DNA of 64,000 bases from Escherichia phage E26. The position numbers were made by a program, and so were the translations under genes. Shown piece by piece: positions 47,094 through 63,881 of this stretch; position 1 is the stretch's first letter; every line of letters begins with the position of its first letter. The stretch lies in sequence record MN655998.1, one strand, 5' to 3'. The notes beneath the pieces are model-generated. The model was not told where the DNA came from, did no database searches, and worked only from the letters and a program-made list of their open reading frames with translations.

Positions 47094-48025
47094 TGTTTGA
47101 TTTAAATGACTTTAACGAACAAGCCGCTAACCTTGACTTTCAGCGATCTAACTTATTCAGCGTGGCATTTGCCACCACTCCAAGTAATAAGACACAAGCG
47201 ATCCTAGAAAGTATGGGCGGTGCGGTATATGATATTATACCAAATGCATTAAATGACTATTTCGGGATTACTCGTGGTGATTATACTGACGCATTAACAA
47301 ATCTTGCTGTACAGGGTGTTAGGCGTGCTGTTGATTCATCTGGTGTCAAAAAGTATCTTTTAGGTGCAATGTCATCCCGCGTAGTTCAATCTCTTCTGGG
47401 GCAATTTGATGTTGGTACATATGCGCTTGACTGGTTCAATATGGCATATAAGACAAGCGGTCTTCTGGTGTATGCTGTTAAGGTTCCAGAAAACAGATTG
47501 AATTATGAAATGGACCGTAACCACAATGCGCCAAACATTCGAATTACCGGACGTGATTTCGATCCGCTTGTATTGAGCTTTAGAATGGACTCTAGCGCAT
47601 CAAACTATCGAGCAATGCAGGATTGGGTTAACTCAGTAGAAGACCCCGTTACAGGGCTTCGTGCGCTTCCTGTTGACGTTGAAGCAGATATTCAGGTCAA
47701 CTTACATAACCGAATGGGAGTTCCTCACACGATCATGATGTTTAATGGTTGTGTTCCTGTTGGTGTGAGTGCACCGGAATTAAACTATGAAAACAACAAC
47801 GAAATCACAACATTCGATGTTACTTTCGCATATCGTTCTATGCAAACTGGTGCTGTAGGAGAGCAAGCCGCGCGAGAATGGATTGAGGATAAGGCAATAA
47901 ACGCAATAACAAACACGTTCGGCAATAATTTACTTGATAGTGGGTTATCTGCTGCTGGTAATGCTTTATCGCGTCTAAATGGCGTTGGTGGGCGTGTGGT
48001 GAATACTGTCACTAACTGGTTCTGA
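47093..48025 (+). CDS. 54: baseplate tail tube initiator gp54
   Basis: 310 aa; tube-like C-terminal motif (TTFDVTFAYRS) as T4 gp54. Confidence 0.85.
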   Translation: MFDLNDFNEQAANLDFQRSNLFSVAFATTPSNKTQAILESMGGAVYDIIPNALNDYFGITRGDYTDALTNLAVQGVRRAVDSSGVKKYLLGAMSSRVVQSLLGQFDVGTYALDWFNMAYKTSGLLVYAVKVPENRLNYEMDRNHNAPNIRITGRDFDPLVLSFRMDSSASNYRAMQDWVNSVEDPVTGLRALPVDVEADIQVNLHNRMGVPHTIMMFNGCVPVGVSAPELNYENNNEITTFDVTFAYRSMQTGAVGEQAAREWIEDKAINAITNTFGNNLLDSGLSAAGNALSRLNGVGGRVVNTVTNWF

Positions 48026-55011: not shown

Positions 55012-55320
55012 TCATTTAGACAAATAATCATTCTGTGCAATCCGGTCAGCATGTTCCGGCGTTACGTCAATTGCAATCACTTTAACGCGTGCTTTCTTGC
55101 GACCTGGGTTTTCTCGTAGCCAGTGCGTGTGACCGTACAAATTTTTATACTTTGATGCTTCTTCGAAGGTACGGATCGGACCTGGGTAATCAGCGTAAAG
55201 GATCTCTAGATCTTCGGTGATGTAAAAATATACATCGTAATTGCTGTTCTCTAGCTTAAGCAGAGACTTTCGGAACATTGGGAGATTTTCGCGGGTAAAT
55301 TCAAAGATATTATCTTTCAT
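55012..55320 (-). CDS. HxHW-family paralog A1
   Basis: 102 aa from ATG (MKDN, GAGGA RBS); GHTHWL then VKVIAIDV. Confidence 0.55.
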   Translation of the reverse strand: MKDNIFEFTRENLPMFRKSLLKLENSNYDVYFYITEDLEILYADYPGPIRTFEEASKYKNLYGHTHWLRENPGRKKARVKVIAIDVTPEHADRIAQNDYLSK

Positions 55321-55344
55321 AGTATTATCCTCAATAGTTGGATG

Positions 55345-55367
55345 AAAAGGGGGGCTTAACGCCCCCA
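55345..55367 (-). terminator. rho-independent terminator (GGGGGCGUUAAGCCCCC family)
   Basis: same hairpin as at 51562..51582 and, on the other strand, after wac. Confidence 0.6.
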
Positions 55368-55371
55368 TATA

Positions 55372-55659
55372 TTAAAACAGTCCTTCCTGTACACCGTAAT
55401 AGAGTTCGTCGCTGATAATTTCATTAATGCGACGGTGTGCATATTCCTGATTTGCGAAGTTGTCAGCAAGTTCTACTTTAGTTTCTCCGTCATGAGTCCA
55501 TTTAGTGATAACTTTACCATCTGCAAATTTGAAGTTGAACTCTTTAGCTACCGCATCGCGTACCAGACGTGCAAACTTATTGTTGCGGATTGCATTGTCG
55601 GTTTCGTGTGCAGCGTGAGCGAATTTGTTAACTTTCAGAGTGATAGTAATGTATGCCAT
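55372..55659 (-). CDS. small protein, family C paralog 1
   Basis: 95 aa; RLVRDAVAKEFNFK matches REVRKALAKEFNTK in 58672..58983. Confidence 0.5.
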   Translation of the reverse strand: MAYITITLKVNKFAHAAHETDNAIRNNKFARLVRDAVAKEFNFKFADGKVITKWTHDGETKVELADNFANQEYAHRRINEIISDELYYGVQEGLF

Positions 55660-55734
55660 AATTTGATTCTCCTAGTTAGAAAGTGTATCTCGTTTCGATG
55701 GGTGTATTATGCTATACACCCGACCTTATGTCAA
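55660..55734 (-). promoter_or_regulatory. PeSL-like cassette g
   Basis: TTGACA, 17 nt, CATAAT flanked by GGGTGTAT..ATACACCC, leader. Confidence 0.55.
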
Positions 55735-55740
55735 CACTTT

Positions 55741-56019
55741 TTATAAAATAATTTTTTGATATTTTTCTATGATGTTCGTGTAAGTCACATCAACCGCTAG
55801 CACCGTTGCTTCGAATCCACCGTTTAGCCAATGGCTATGGTCATGATCGTGAAAGAAACCAAGACCAGTACGAAGACCTTCTTTATATTCTGCGCGTACA
55901 TTTAGATCATCATCGATAAACAGATAAAACCATGAATTTTTACTAGGATTGATGATACAACCTTTCAGATTAGGGAGAATATCACGACTAAGAATAAACT
56001 TATCACCTACTTTGAACAT
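55741..56019 (-). CDS. HxHW-family paralog A2
   Basis: 92 aa from ATG (MFKVGDKF, GAGGA RBS); HSHWL then VLAVDV. Confidence 0.55.
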   Translation of the reverse strand: MFKVGDKFILSRDILPNLKGCIINPSKNSWFYLFIDDDLNVRAEYKEGLRTGLGFFHDHDHSHWLNGGFEATVLAVDVTYTNIIEKYQKIIL

Positions 56020-59070: not shown

Positions 59071-59415
59071 TTATTTTTTCATGAGCTTAATTGCTTCTTC
59101 CATAGCCAACACATTTCGATAGTTAGGGTATCGTGTTAGATCGTCATACATTCGCTTAAGGGTGGAAACTTCCTCAAACTCTGGGTTTTCTAGATACAGT
59201 TGAACAAATTGTTTCTCTATCATCTCTGCTTTTAGCTTGTCTGCTTGTTCCTGTTCATATGATTTAGTTGGACCCAACACCAACAAAATGATAAAGGTGA
59301 TCAACGGGCTAATGATCAACGATAGGATAACATAACCGATAACGCTACGGTTTAAACGGCTTGCATACATGCCTACCAGGAAAACAAAAAGGATATAGAT
59401 AAACAGAAAGAACAT
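59071..59415 (-). CDS. small membrane protein
   Basis: 114 aa; two N-terminal hydrophobic helices then charged tail. Confidence 0.5.
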   Translation of the reverse strand: MFFLFIYILFVFLVGMYASRLNRSVIGYVILSLIISPLITFIILLVLGPTKSYEQEQADKLKAEMIEKQFVQLYLENPEFEEVSTLKRMYDDLTRYPNYRNVLAMEEAIKLMKK

Positions 59416-59422
59416 ATAATGG

Positions 59423-59896
59423 TTACTCCTTATTTTCGCGCTCGTACTTTTCGAAATAAAATTCTACTGGCTGGTCATTAATTGACAGCAAGCCAAAGCG
59501 TTTAGCCGCTCGCAATCCCATATTGCGCTGAATGTACTTCTGGAAGTTCTCGCGTATACACTTACGCCAGTATTCTAAGCCCATACAGCTTTTATAAAGA
59601 TTGCATTGCACACACGCCGGATTCATGTTATCAAGTATATCATGTTCCGGTTTATGCATTCCTACAACCTTATACTTCCACGATCCATCATCATTACGGG
59701 CAATTCGTCCATTTTCATCATAGACTACCTTTGAGCGTCGCAATACTGGTTTGATGTGGTCTGCGTGCCAGCGATCCCCTAGTTCCTCGCCACAATAGGC
59801 ACAACGTCCACCATATTTCATTTTCAGGATCTGGCGTTGCTCTTTCTTTGACAATTTTTTAGGTTTAGGGGCTTTTGCCCCTTCATTATCACACAT
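59423..59896 (-). CDS. small HNH endonuclease
   Basis: 157 aa; HNH core CAYCGEEL..WHADHIKPV..NMNPACVQCN. Confidence 0.65.
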   Translation of the reverse strand: MCDNEGAKAPKPKKLSKKEQRQILKMKYGGRCAYCGEELGDRWHADHIKPVLRRSKVVYDENGRIARNDDGSWKYKVVGMHKPEHDILDNMNPACVQCNLYKSCMGLEYWRKCIRENFQKYIQRNMGLRAAKRFGLLSINDQPVEFYFEKYERENKE

Positions 59897-61385
59897 CGAA
59901 TACCTCTTTTACTGTATTTGCAGTGGTCTTGTCGTAGCGAATACGTTTGATGATTGGGAGAAATAAAGAGAACTCCGGTTCATCTTCTTTACGTGATTTG
60001 CTGCGGATATACCCGTTGCATGTCATCTCAATGACTTTTCCAATCAGGTTATGACGATCAGCCCATAACATTTCTCGGTCGAGTTCATTTCTACGATCGA
60101 ACGGAATTACACGTTCAATACCATCATCACCTTTTTCGGTTGTAGTGTCGGTTAATCCAGATCCGGTGTTAGTCATCATTCGTCCGCACGCACTACGGAC
60201 AGTAAAACCGCCTACCTTATTGGGGTCTTTACTATGCGGATATACATCAACAATTTCCGCGTCGAAGTCAATCACTTCTTTAAATTTAACCTGATCTTTA
60301 CTACGGCGATCTTCAAATACACCATGTAAATTTTTAAGGATAATACCTTCTAAGCCCATGTTTACATAGCGATGATATACTTCGCGAGCTTCGTCTATAT
60401 TGTTAACTACAGTGTTTTCGATTATCTGAACACGAGGATCGTTAAGTTCTTCAACAATCTGTTTTAGTTCTTCGAATCGATCTTTATATTGCTTCGTTGC
60501 TTTCTCGTTTCCGTAATACACATCACGGTCGATAACATCCCAGACAGTGTAAACAATACATTGGGCTTCTTCTTTTGGAATAGTTCCTTTCAGTGATTTG
60601 TTGAGGATACCATTTCCGGTCTGACGATCTGCAACAACGGATTCTTTTACTGCTTCCGCTACTGGAGTTAATGGCATTTCCTCTTCTTCAAATATCCATG
60701 ACAGAGTACCATCATAAACGCTCTCAACGAAGTTCTGCGCTGGTGTTTGTGAAAGGGTAGGCATATATACCAATTCGCCATCTAGAACAATTCCACGGCC
60801 TCGTAGACGCTCTAAAACCGCAAACAAATCATCAAGCCCTTGATAGGTATTACCTGAGCGGGTATAGATTGCTAATGTTTCCCCGTCAATATCAGCCATA
60901 CCACGAGCGCCATCGCTTTTAAGTTGTGCATACGCCGGATATTTGATATTGGCAATAGTCTTATCAGAACATGACGATGCAAGGTGGCACGGTTGCTGAG
61001 GAATCAGTTTCTTCCATACCTTGTTTGCAGTGGTAGCGGAACAGCCGCATTCCAGATCACGATTCAGGACCATCATCGCAACTTTAGCATCATCCTCTGA
61101 CAAGCAAGTCAGAGTATCGGTAACTAGCTGTAATGCTGCATTACCAGTTACTTGACGCGTGGCAAGTTTATTTTTAAAGACCTGTAATGCACCGGATAAA
61201 GACAATACAGACGAATAGCGAGATGGTTTATCGTATTTCTTTACGCCAAACGTAACCTGTTTGCAATATGCCAGATAAAAGCATTCTTTCAGCGTTTCAT
61301 TGCTCGCGGATTCTTTCAGGATCTTTTCTTTCAGCGATGTTTTGTCGGTTGCTGCAAGCTGATTAATGATATTAAGAATTGACAT
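59889..61385 (-). CDS. 30: ATP-dependent DNA ligase gp30
   Basis: 498 aa from ATG (MSIL); adenylation motif KSDG (AYAQLKSDGARG); EGIILKN, FLPI..R..DK; ORF-track start at 61391 is GTG. Confidence 0.95.
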   Translation of the reverse strand: MSILNIINQLAATDKTSLKEKILKESASNETLKECFYLAYCKQVTFGVKKYDKPSRYSSVLSLSGALQVFKNKLATRQVTGNAALQLVTDTLTCLSEDDAKVAMMVLNRDLECGCSATTANKVWKKLIPQQPCHLASSCSDKTIANIKYPAYAQLKSDGARGMADIDGETLAIYTRSGNTYQGLDDLFAVLERLRGRGIVLDGELVYMPTLSQTPAQNFVESVYDGTLSWIFEEEEMPLTPVAEAVKESVVADRQTGNGILNKSLKGTIPKEEAQCIVYTVWDVIDRDVYYGNEKATKQYKDRFEELKQIVEELNDPRVQIIENTVVNNIDEAREVYHRYVNMGLEGIILKNLHGVFEDRRSKDQVKFKEVIDFDAEIVDVYPHSKDPNKVGGFTVRSACGRMMTNTGSGLTDTTTEKGDDGIERVIPFDRRNELDREMLWADRHNLIGKVIEMTCNGYIRSKSRKEDEPEFSLFLPIIKRIRYDKTTANTVKEVFDV

Positions 61386-61851
61386 TTTCACCTCGTTTTG
61401 TTAAACGTTCACGAATATCATTGAGGATACTACAAAATTCCGATTCAGTCAATATAGTCTTTAACGGATCAGTTCCACCTATACTATGACGTAATTTCTT
61501 ATTTCCGGTCGAGAGTAATGCTTTACAAAATTCTGGGTTATTCCGTGCCATCGTAACAAATGCCAGATGTACCAGTCTGTAATAATGCTCACTCATTCGA
61601 TGAATCGGGCGACCCTGAAAATATAACATGTGATTCTCAATCTTTTCAGTTCTTCCGGTTCTTTTTGCTTTGCCACCATGCATCAAAAAGATTTCTCTTT
61701 GTCTCTGAGGGTTCTTAAATCTTAGCCCCTGTAAAAATCCTTCTGTGCTGTTAATATCGCAACCAAATAGACGGAATGGTCTTTTATTGAAATTACTCAA
61801 TTCACCAGATGGATAAGGTCCACCCGCATAGATATCAATTTCAGAAGTCAT
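61372..61851 (-). CDS. NADAR (YbiA-like, DUF1768) domain protein
   Basis: 159 aa; GELSNF...STEGFLQGLRF and HSIGGTD..L.....ILNDIRERL fit the YbiA/NADAR pattern. Confidence 0.5.
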   Translation of the reverse strand: MTSEIDIYAGGPYPSGELSNFNKRPFRLFGCDINSTEGFLQGLRFKNPQRQREIFLMHGGKAKRTGRTEKIENHMLYFQGRPIHRMSEHYYRLVHLAFVTMARNNPEFCKALLSTGNKKLRHSIGGTDPLKTILTESEFCSILNDIRERLTKRGENVNS

Positions 61852-62057: not shown

Positions 62058-62076
62058 GGCGGGATTATTTCCCGCC
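62058..62076 (-). terminator. stem-loop after gene 31
   Basis: minus strand GGCGGGA-AATAA-TCCCGCC then U-rich tract. Confidence 0.45.
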
Positions 62077-62087
62077 GTTTAAAATCA

Positions 62088-62411
62088 TTAACCGTAAACT
62101 ACCACAATATTCTGTTTGTGCGTTACAGTCCATTTCAGGTCGATCTCTTCTTCCTTCTTAACGCCGTTAATAACGTCTGGATGAGGAACTTTATTAAGTT
62201 TCCCATGAGGAAGCAATACAGTCTTGCCCAGCAATTCTTTATCAACGTTATCACCGATATCAATAATCTTACCGACTAAAGGAATCTCTCCCATAGTTCG
62301 TTTTTGCTCGATGATAATACCAAAATCGCTCTTTACTTCGGTCCCTGCGCTTTCCGCTTTAGCTTCAATGATCACATAGTCACCAAGTGCTTTAGGAGTT
62401 TTAACGGTCAT
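62088..62411 (-). CDS. 31: co-chaperonin gp31 (GroES-like)
   Basis: 107 aa; GroES-like size; VPHP motif as T4 gp31; position between ligase and cd. Confidence 0.8.
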   Translation of the reverse strand: MTVKTPKALGDYVIIEAKAESAGTEVKSDFGIIIEQKRTMGEIPLVGKIIDIGDNVDKELLGKTVLLPHGKLNKVPHPDVINGVKKEEEIDLKWTVTHKQNIVVVYG

Positions 62412-62447
62412 AATTTTCTTACCTCTTCAATTCATCTCAATAGTAAA

Positions 62448-63065
62448 TTATTTATATTTCGCGACCTTTGGATTTCTCCGCAGACCGGAATGTATTTGCG
62501 CTATACAACAATAAGAAACATTAAACATATCAGCTATAATTTGCTTCTTAACTTTTCCTTTAAGCCGCATTATTTCTTCGACTTGCGCATTTGTCAGTTT
62601 TGCCCGTGAGTGGTTTTCACCGACATTGTTATTGAGTCCAGTTCTAAATGAATGTCTCATATTTTCTAGTAAGGTTACTATTTCTAGATTCCACACATAA
62701 TTGCAGGTTTTTACACCATTGATGTGATTAACCTCAAGTCCGGTAACGTCTCCTAGAAATGCATTTGCTACAAGTCGATGTATCTTTTCGGCTTTAACTG
62801 AGATTTTACCATTGTCTTTTTGTTTTGACAATGTTGAATAATAATATCCATATCGGTCTAAAATTGGTTTTATTATTTTACCAGCACGTTTTTGTTTTAC
62901 GAGCTTAATATTACCGGGAGAAACTTCTCTATAAAATTCGATACTTCGGTCAATAGATCTCAATCTACCATAATTAGAGATTTCATACCACGGATAACCT
63001 ACAGCTTGTCTCCATTCTTCCGGCGCTGGTAATACGATATTATCATCTTTTGTTTCCATTGTCAA
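62448..63065 (-). CDS. HNH homing endonuclease (NUMOD4 + HNH type)
   Basis: 205 aa; WYEISNYGRLRS (NUMOD4-like) and VNHINGVKTCNYVWNLE (HNH) motifs. Confidence 0.75.
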   Translation of the reverse strand: MTMETKDDNIVLPAPEEWRQAVGYPWYEISNYGRLRSIDRSIEFYREVSPGNIKLVKQKRAGKIIKPILDRYGYYYSTLSKQKDNGKISVKAEKIHRLVANAFLGDVTGLEVNHINGVKTCNYVWNLEIVTLLENMRHSFRTGLNNNVGENHSRAKLTNAQVEEIMRLKGKVKKQIIADMFNVSYCCIAQIHSGLRRNPKVAKYK

Positions 63066-63388
63066 CTGCCACCGTAAATTTCGACGATCTGCGCTGGAGT
63101 CAGCCCGTCTACATTAATCAGACTATCAAGCCCAAAACTACGGAAACCTTCAACTGCAATTTCATATACTGGCAAAGATGTTTCTGAGTCTTTACGCGGT
63201 TTTTCAACATTCGGAACTAACCACTTTTCGTATGTTTCGAAAGGCATCAGTGCCGGATCTCGCGTGGCGATCATCTCACGGACAGTACCATCTTTCTTAG
63301 TAAACTGCAAAGAGTGAGTACCGACCGAAAACATTTTCTTTAGTGCTTCACGAAGTGCGATATTATCAACTTGTTCAGTCATTATCAA
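63062..63388 (-). CDS. hypothetical protein (T4 31.1/31.2 position)
   Basis: 108-aa ORF coupled to both neighbours. Confidence 0.5.
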   Translation of the reverse strand: MIMTEQVDNIALREALKKMFSVGTHSLQFTKKDGTVREMIATRDPALMPFETYEKWLVPNVEKPRKDSETSLPVYEIAVEGFRSFGLDSLINVDGLTPAQIVEIYGGS

Positions 63389-63881
63389 TACCCTTCAAAT
63401 CAGTCAATAATGCTTTTGGAATACGCGTGATCGTAATATCTGCATTATTCAGAATATCAGCCCAATCACGCCCACCATTTCGATCATATGTGTCGCAATA
63501 GTATAGATGTTTAATTCCACTGTTTGCAATTGCTTTAGCGCAATCTGGACACGGTGAAGCAGTACACCACATACTAGCGCCTTCAATCGATACACCGCTA
63601 CGGGCAGCAAACAAAATAGCATTTAATTCAGCGTGGATCTCGTTTTTCTGTGACCATGCACTATGCTCTGGTCGTTTTTCTGGGATCATTTTGCCGTCAT
63701 CATCCAGCCAACCGTTTTTATGTGCATGACAGCTACAATTTACTTGCCCTGCTGGAGTTCCGTTAAATCCAGTAGAAATGATTCGCCCGTCTTTTTCGAT
63801 CAGTGCGCCTACCTTCCACGAAACACATTTAGAGTTCTTTGCGATCAGATAGGCGATCTGCATGTAAGTTTGTGACAACAT
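63375..63881 (-). CDS. cd: dCMP deaminase
   Basis: 168 aa; zinc-binding HAELNAI ... PCPDC signature; N-terminus as T4 Cd. Confidence 0.92.
   Translation of the reverse strand: MLSQTYMQIAYLIAKNSKCVSWKVGALIEKDGRIISTGFNGTPAGQVNCSCHAHKNGWLDDDGKMIPEKRPEHSAWSQKNEIHAELNAILFAARSGVSIEGASMWCTASPCPDCAKAIANSGIKHLYYCDTYDRNGGRDWADILNNADITITRIPKALLTDLKGIDND

Follow-up and report, generated by a model that had tools for sequence, protein, structure and literature searches.

The stretch of DNA analysed here (the window: 64,000 nucleotides of Escherichia phage E26, sequence record MN655998.1) is part of an RB49-like, T4-type E. coli phage (Krischvirus). On its minus strand, at 62448..63065, it contains a single unbroken open reading frame (ORF) for an HNH endonuclease. 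The gene is inserted at the very end of Krischvirus gene 31.1 and travels as a cassette, and we consider it likely to be an I-HmuI-type homing endonuclease gene of the free-standing kind. An earlier reading made without database searches (the sequence-only reading) had described the ORF as 205 amino acids (aa) long, located between gp31 and cd and coupled to both flanking genes. The ORF is intact and has this length when counted from the TTG at 63065, which overlaps the TGA of gene 31.1, although the ATG two codons further in, at 63059, is the likelier start and gives a protein of 203 aa; the ATG form is the one annotated in the GenBank records of ECD7, KFS-EC and ELT4, and is also the 203-aa cluster representative. 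The upstream neighbour is gene 31.1 and not cd, which lies one gene further. Coupling holds on the upstream side, where the ATG is 2 nucleotides (nt) past the 31.1 stop, but not on the downstream side, where a 36-nt spacer holding gene 31's own Shine-Dalgarno (SD) sequence separates the HNH gene from gene 31. The minus-strand order is cd, 31.1, HNH ORF, gene 31, a terminator-like hairpin, a small ORF, 30.3, ligase gene 30 and a second, small HNH gene, and the genes around the insertion are as follows.

63375..63881, minus strand: cd, one gene beyond 31.1.
63062..63382, minus strand: gene 31.1, WYL_2 / SH3-like barrel (domain match and homologous records).
62448..63059, minus strand: HNH endonuclease gene (ORF, Pfam, PHROG, match to I-HmuI by sequence and fold, and the ratio of non-synonymous to synonymous rates, dN/dS).
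62088..62411, minus strand: gene 31, GroES-like co-chaperonin of 107 aa (annotation of homologous records; weak Cpn10 match).

Two Pfam families were matched by the product, both above the curated gathering thresholds: NUMOD4 (PF07463) at residues 16-79 (E 2.2e-11, 44.2 bits against a cut-off of 23.4) and HNH_3 (PF13392) at residues 94-137 (E 8.1e-9). These matches agree with the NUMOD4-like N-terminus (YEISNYGRLRS) and the HNH core (HINGVKTCNYVWNLE) that the sequence-only reading had pointed out, both peptides being present in the protein. The best PHROGs match is PHROG 59 'HNH endonuclease' (E 1.6e-35), NCBIfam has no family for the protein, and several GenBank records already label the gene 'HNH homing endonuclease' (ECD7 HNH_2, ELT4). 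The sole relative found by sequence in the PDB is I-HmuI (1U3E, E 1.5e-3), the intron-encoded nicking HNH enzyme of Bacillus phage SPO1. When an AlphaFold2 model built from 18 homologues (predicted local distance difference test, pLDDT, 81.6) was compared using Foldseek, 1U3E was again the sole PDB match at E<=0.001 (E 1.4e-6, probability 1.00, 195 aligned columns); the template modelling (TM) score against 1U3E is just 0.45-0.52, as is expected of an extended multi-domain protein modelled without DNA. The two proteins align over nearly their full length and have the same module order, with an N-terminal beta-rich DNA-binding part (the NUMOD4 region), the HNH core (here HNH_3, a beta-beta-alpha-metal nuclease core) and a helical C-terminal domain, for which three helices are predicted here. 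They differ in that identity is only about 22%, that I-HmuI has 174 aa as against 203 aa here, with an extra hairpin in the N-terminal part, and that I-HmuI lies inside a group I intron whereas the present gene is free-standing.

62652..62729, minus strand: catalytic core, residues N111-H136 (VNHINGVKTCNYVWNLEIVTLLENMRH) (alignment to I-HmuI and conservation).

Residues H112, N124 and N133 were aligned with I-HmuI H75, N87 and N96. In I-HmuI, H75 is the general base and D74 a metal ligand, and the Asn residues of such cores have structural and metal-binding roles. Among the 18 closest homologues N111, H112, N120, N124 and N133 are invariant and H136 nearly so, and the pattern 'VNHINGxK..N...NLE....N..H' is invariant. 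Judged from sequence and predicted fold, the ORF product is an I-HmuI-type (HNH_3/NUMOD4) endonuclease with its catalytic His/Asn residues intact. The C-terminal 60 residues form three predicted helices (157-165, 172-179 and 183-191) which, in the model, look like a helix-turn-helix DNA-binding domain, with weak fold matches in Foldseek to helix-turn-helix domains of the LuxR and DeoR types. In a search that covered 50,697 phage records and 5.8 billion proteins, the nearest homologues outside Krischvirus share just 35-39% identity with it, and no other paralogue of the protein was found within the 64-kb window.

A 2.2-kb query around the ORF matched 59 Krischvirus records at 96-99% identity. 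The gene is present in 11 of these, which represent nine phages (ECD7, KFS-EC, PHB13, pEJ01, G2494, ELT4, phiS, FL20 and G37-3), while the other 48 (the non-carriers) have an empty site and match the query as two pieces, with about 615 bp absent between them. Presence/absence polymorphism among relatives, which had been proposed as a check, is thus found at one fixed site, with all 48 empty sites intact; the sporadic distribution (11/59) is not that of a conserved, non-mobile nuclease. An index of public assemblies lists the identical 203-aa protein in 67 blocks, and among the matches listed for it the context is 31.1-HNH-31 in 9 of 9 places, no ectopic copy being seen among these nine. A scan of IMG/VR returned just ECD7 and one 32%-identical relative.

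The junctions were aligned for 10 carriers (window included) and 7 non-carriers. They are the same in all the carriers, and the empty site is intact and the same in all the non-carriers. No copy found, metagenome contigs included, departs from these junctions. The features of the insert are as follows.

62455..63074, no strand assigned: carrier-specific DNA of about 620 bp (junction alignments, 10 carriers and 7 non-carriers).
63069..63073, minus strand: GGTGG, SD-like element for the HNH gene, borne by the insert (read from sequence).
62449..62456, minus strand: TATAAATA, the consensus of T4-type late promoters; it overlaps the final codons and the stop codon of the HNH gene and lies 36 nt before the ATG of gene 31.

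The empty site reads ...ATC GTC GAA ATT TAT AAA TAA, the end of 31.1, followed by a spacer of 41-45 nt and gene 31. In carriers the upstream junction reads ...GAA ATT TAC GGT GGC AGT TGA CA ATG... and the downstream junction ...GTC GCG AAA TAT AAA TAA, followed by the 36-nt spacer, so that the insert recodes the C-terminus of 31.1 from ..EIYK* to ..EIYGGS* (a three-codon tail plus stop). The last 18 nt of the HNH ORF (62448..62465) match the last 18 nt of the empty-site 31.1 at 14 of 18 positions in frame, TATAAATA included, which makes an imperfect direct repeat around the insert; the ends of the insert are ambiguous by a few bases because of this imperfect flanking repeat (GTCGAAATTTA versus GTCGCGAAATA). 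It seems that the HNH ORF took over the tail that formerly ended 31.1, together with its stop codon and TATAAATA box. The insert is built to spare its host: it provides i) a new tail and stop for 31.1, ii) its own ribosome-binding site, and iii) a 3' end that restores TATAAATA and the spacer before the essential gene 31.

The copy of TATAAATA at 62449..62456 is the sole one on the minus strand of the window. It also ends gene 31.1 in the empty-site genomes and lies in the same distance class before gene 31 in both types. Its putative role as a late promoter for gene 31 comes from the consensus and from conservation within Krischvirus only, since T4 has no TATAAATA between 31.1 and 31.

The strongest correlate of the insertion lies in the gene downstream.

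62196..62445, minus strand: divergent tract linked to the HNH gene, comprising gene 31 codons 19-72 and the 31/HNH spacer (fixed differences; between-group divergence, dxy).

Among 17 aligned genomes there are 1,493 variable sites in 10 kb, 35 of which are fixed differences between carriers and non-carriers. All 35 fall within 62196..62445 (gene 31 nt 57-216, mostly at third codon positions, and the spacer) and none on the 31.1 side. Within the tract, carriers differ from non-carriers by 15-19% and from one another by 0-3%, and dxy is 17.5%, as against 1-2.5% elsewhere; outside the tract, between-group divergence is about equal to within-group diversity (1-3%). A tract at least 98% identical to that of the window occurs in 11 records, which are exactly the 11 gene carriers (0 of the 48 non-carriers), while in 46 of the other records the tract is 83-87% identical to the window. 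This association is a population-level correlate of co-conversion, not measured conversion. The carrier and non-carrier forms of gp31 differ by S29D, M30F, E54D, T55N and M72L; residues 29 and 30 lie just before GIII, the presumed GroEL-binding segment within the mobile loop.

Metagenomes yielded six more carrier contigs, whose tract is identical to that of the window at 252 of 252 positions. In these contigs the HNH gene and gene 31 differ from the window by 0-0.7%, the ligase region by 1-6% and gene 31.1 by up to 16.7% (in contig L025). Since the HNH gene and gene 31 are nearly identical while the adjoining 31.1 differs to this extent, the HNH gene and the gene 31 tract form a near-identical island of about 0.9 kb that has been placed into many backgrounds. 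Contig L025 (2179..2998; Logan SRR35550864) has a 31.1 allele 9-17% diverged from all others, next to an HNH gene and a gene 31 identical to those of the window. Its 31.1 variants also occur in the HNH-less mosaic UPWr_E1, which indicates that more than two haplotypes segregate around the site.

The carriers do not group together as a clade. ELT4 has its nearest relative in the flanks in JSE (0.8%), and the window there comes nearest to PTE-Eco09 and G2248 (0.9%); carriers are as near to non-carriers as to each other in flanking DNA, the groups differing by 1-3% outside the element. Across a 24-kb structural block, for which no record is more than 98.8% identical to the window, carriers and non-carriers are intermingled, and the best matches (ELT3, 011D4 and JEP8) lack the gene. 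Gene 31.1 alleles are also freely common to carriers and non-carriers, and outside the cassette the genomes of the two groups recombine freely with each other. This distribution is inconsistent with vertical descent, and the gene has spread horizontally. An ancestral Krischvirus gene that is being deleted in most lineages is highly improbable as an explanation: frameshifted copies (see below) show that decay occurs, but the carriers are neither basal nor a clade, and the empty sites are all identical and intact, with a gene 31 tract that is 15-19% different. Simple deletion cannot give this pattern, since the empty-site genomes have a different gene 31 sequence; the linked diverged tract already speaks against the scenario, which was rejected on this account.

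Ten copies of the HNH gene show 20 synonymous and 10 non-synonymous changes (dN/dS about 0.14), and the gene is thus under purifying selection, with no amino-acid change in the nuclease core or the C-terminal domain of the intact copies. Independent 1-nt frameshifts just before or inside the catalytic motif were found in G37-3, where one A is missing from an A5 run and one T is also missing from TATAAATA, and in FL20, where TT has become TTT. Of the 10 non-synonymous changes, 4 are found in these two copies, and two of these 4 lie downstream of the frameshift in FL20, which fits real decay as expected in the decay phase of the homing cycle. In favour of a domesticated accessory nuclease that serves the phage, for instance by excluding co-infecting relatives or by processing DNA, are the purifying selection and the neat fit of the gene into the host's expression signals, and marker exclusion by T4 endonucleases is known to benefit linked genes (PMC2988022). 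We give this explanation little weight, given that only about 1 in 5 genomes carry the gene, that two copies are frameshifted and that no conserved partner gene was found. The difference between a domesticated and a selfish nuclease is here one of viewpoint more than of mechanism, as marker exclusion of a competitor is mechanistically the same as intronless homing.

Nine HNH-less genomes were aligned base by base across gene 31. Carrier-type bases are present at codons 15-19 in PTE-Eco09 and GoldenSnicker, from about codon 58 on in the mosaic JK32 and from about codon 43 on in the mosaic UPWr_E1, whereas the spacer and gene 31 codons 23-42 (about 62286..62447) are always of the non-carrier type. 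This region is the most economical place for a recognition or immunity determinant. A more distal site would be equally allowed; UPWr_E1 and JK32 would then be resistant survivors that were converted without gaining the gene, of the kind described for SegG and gene 32. Gene-less mosaics make up 2 of 48 non-carriers and reciprocal, HNH-carrying mosaics 0 of 16 carriers, numbers too small to decide the site.

The same recombinants bear on the view that the cassette is passive cargo, introgressed once from a diverged phage and then spread by general T4-type recombination with the nuclease uninvolved. Recombination is indeed frequent, between-group divergence being equal to within-group diversity within about 150 bp of the cassette, and crossovers occur even inside the tract (UPWr_E1, JK32 and PTE-Eco09); in addition, a divergence of 17% would by itself suppress crossovers within the tract. 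We nevertheless think this view unlikely. The gene is under purifying selection, its intact copies are free of changes in the nuclease core and the C-terminal domain, and its catalytic residues are intact; the cassette forms an island of low diversity, with backgrounds around it that differ by up to 17%, and most members of the family are homing enzymes, either proven or annotated as such.

A free-standing homing endonuclease, as the sequence-only reading had it, accounts for the polymorphism, the carriers that are not a clade, the near-identical island and the I-HmuI-type sequence and predicted fold. We propose that the enzyme would be translated by coupling to 31.1 from the cd-31.1 transcript. 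In a mixed infection it would nick or cut the empty-site genome, at or close to the 31.1/31 spacer or the 5' part of gene 31. Repair by recombination would then copy the HNH gene and the adjoining gene 31 tract from the carrier genome, and the carrier would be immune by virtue of a tract and a split spacer that differ at the recognition site. Probably the target or the immunity determinant lies within the 5' part of gene 31 or directly beside it. A more specific version, in which the endonuclease would recognise the 5' part of gene 31 and so drive replacement of the presumed GroEL-binding mobile-loop region of the co-chaperonin, with UPWr_E1 and JK32 as converted gene-less survivors, is conceivable but rather doubtful.

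Several points weigh against the homing interpretation. First, cleavage, nicking, the target site and biased inheritance are inferred. Second, the position of the I-HmuI metal ligand D74 is Asn here, an Asn that is invariant in the subfamily; a dead enzyme was considered and ruled out on this account, as the invariance of 'NH' in the 18 closest homologues makes the Asn a trait of the subfamily and not a lesion. Third, the C-terminal domain has no match to any Pfam family. Fourth, diversity drops only modestly inside the cassette (to about 1%, as against 2-3% in the flanks), and perfect linkage over 250 bp could arise without selection, since recombination is suppressed in DNA diverged by 17%. 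Fifth, the asymmetry of the recombinants (two HNH-less and no HNH-carrying mosaics) is not statistically significant. Sixth, the frameshifts lie in short homopolymer runs and may be sequencing errors.

Free-standing endonucleases of T4-type phages offer precedents for each proposed step, including nicking by the HNH enzymes MobA and MobE, translational coupling, start/stop overlaps, a promoter retained for the essential gene downstream, and intronless homing by SegF and SegG with co-conversion from nearby sites (PMC2988022). The present gene is like those of T4 MobA-MobE in being a free-standing HNH gene wedged between conserved genes (mobE lies between nrdA and nrdB), in a start codon that touches or overlaps the stop of the gene before it, a sign of translational coupling, in keeping a promoter (here a putative one) for an essential downstream gene and in its sporadic distribution among relatives (PMC2988022). 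It differs in genomic site, as 31.1 and 31 are not separated by a gene in T4. The protein was also rejected as a member of the T4 Mob family: among the Mob proteins MobE alone was compared, with no detectable homology (BLASTP E 0.94), and MobE matches PF01844 HNH rather than HNH_3 and NUMOD4. An RNA hairpin occluding the ribosome-binding site, as in mobE and I-TevI, was not found for the HNH gene on folding 63020..63120 of the minus strand (z = 0.31).

Inheritance of the endonuclease gene together with a stretch of an adjoining essential gene resembles that of T4 SegG, which cuts gene 32, and SegF, which cuts gene 56. Crosses with SegG or SegF can give converted alleles without the endonuclease gene, with which UPWr_E1 and JK32 may be compared. 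The Seg enzymes differ in being of the GIY-YIG and not the HNH type, and their cleavage sites and marker exclusion are experimental, whereas here they are inferred from natural variation. Within the genus, RB49 ORF040, the JSE 'homing endonuclease' and the HNH proteins of TB34 and Cognac are of the same domain family and have a sporadic distribution, but they are 33-45% identical and located elsewhere. Such NUMOD4/HNH_3 genes were seen at JSE 55288..55776, at LF73P4 47095..47472 and in TB34, Cognac, Whisky and KMB43; the same endonuclease family has thus entered the genus by several unrelated insertions. In a literature search no paper was found on the present gene, its site or the linked gene 31 tract, and Krischvirus papers mention just the variable number of HNH genes.

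The remaining features of the region lie downstream of gene 31.

62058..62076, minus strand: hairpin resembling an intrinsic terminator, located after gene 31; the records of G37-3, G2494 and G2248 annotate a terminator here too.
59889..61391, minus strand: DNA ligase gene 30.
59423..59896, minus strand: second, small HNH gene, 157 aa, of the Cys-rich PF01844 type (Pfam HNH E 5.1e-6; PHROG 2118 E 5e-54).

The hairpin marks the end of the transcription unit. A sigma-70-like match on the minus strand at 63037..63065 (TTGACA, 17 nt, TG-TAATAT; 10/12) spans the HNH start codon. It was rejected as a promoter: the region contains 13 such matches against 7.8 +/- 3.8 expected, a number not above chance, and a promoter here would fire inside the HNH ORF towards gene 31, so that it is a consensus match only. 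In ELT4, gene 31.1 is split in two ORFs and the region is 17 nt shorter.

The sequence-only reading had counted two nuclease genes in the ligase-gp31-cd region. Both HNH ORFs exist, but just one behaves as mobile. The small HNH gene overlaps the ligase stop by 8 nt, and its product has paired-cysteine motifs on both sides of the catalytic His. Copies with 95% identity or more are present in 58 Krischvirus records; the gene lies at the 3' end of the ligase gene in every locus inspected and has its next relatives, about 44% identical, in siphoviruses. Being fixed in the genus, it is not evidently mobile and lies outside the mobile element; the description of a conserved, non-mobile nuclease, which had been named as the alternative to a homing role, thus applies to this gene. 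Just downstream of it, at 59071..59415 on the minus strand, is a 114-aa ORF (PHROG 25625) with a hydrophobic N-terminus that is itself present or absent within Krischvirus. It is present in the window, PHB13, G37-3, KFS-EC, JSE, G2248 and GoldenSnicker, shorter in G2494, and absent from ECD7, FL20, phiS, pEJ01, ELT4, PTE-Eco09 and TB34. The small HNH protein has 157 aa where the 114-aa ORF is present and 158 aa where it is absent.

The HNH gene at the end of 31.1 is therefore an uncharacterised gene of a well-known kind, with an unusually clean signature in natural variation, and otherwise a textbook case. Free-standing homing endonucleases rank among the main sources of localised gene conversion and of marker exclusion between T4-type phages, and to our knowledge the target has been defined for few of those of the HNH type. 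Here the likely position of the target or immunity determinant is already narrowed by natural variation to about 160-250 bp, within an essential co-chaperonin gene and upstream of it, and the enzyme should be easy to characterise, as presumed sensitive, presumed resistant and mosaic alleles are ready-made (RB49/Phi1, ECD7 and UPWr_E1/JK32). If the endonuclease did drive replacement of the mobile-loop region, a selfish element would be sweeping a functionally different chaperonin allele (S29D/M30F before GIII, E54D/T55N and M72L) through Krischvirus populations. Therapeutic and probiotic cocktails make use of Krischvirus phages, ECD7 for one, and an element that forces local recombination in mixed infections bears on how genetically stable such cocktails are.

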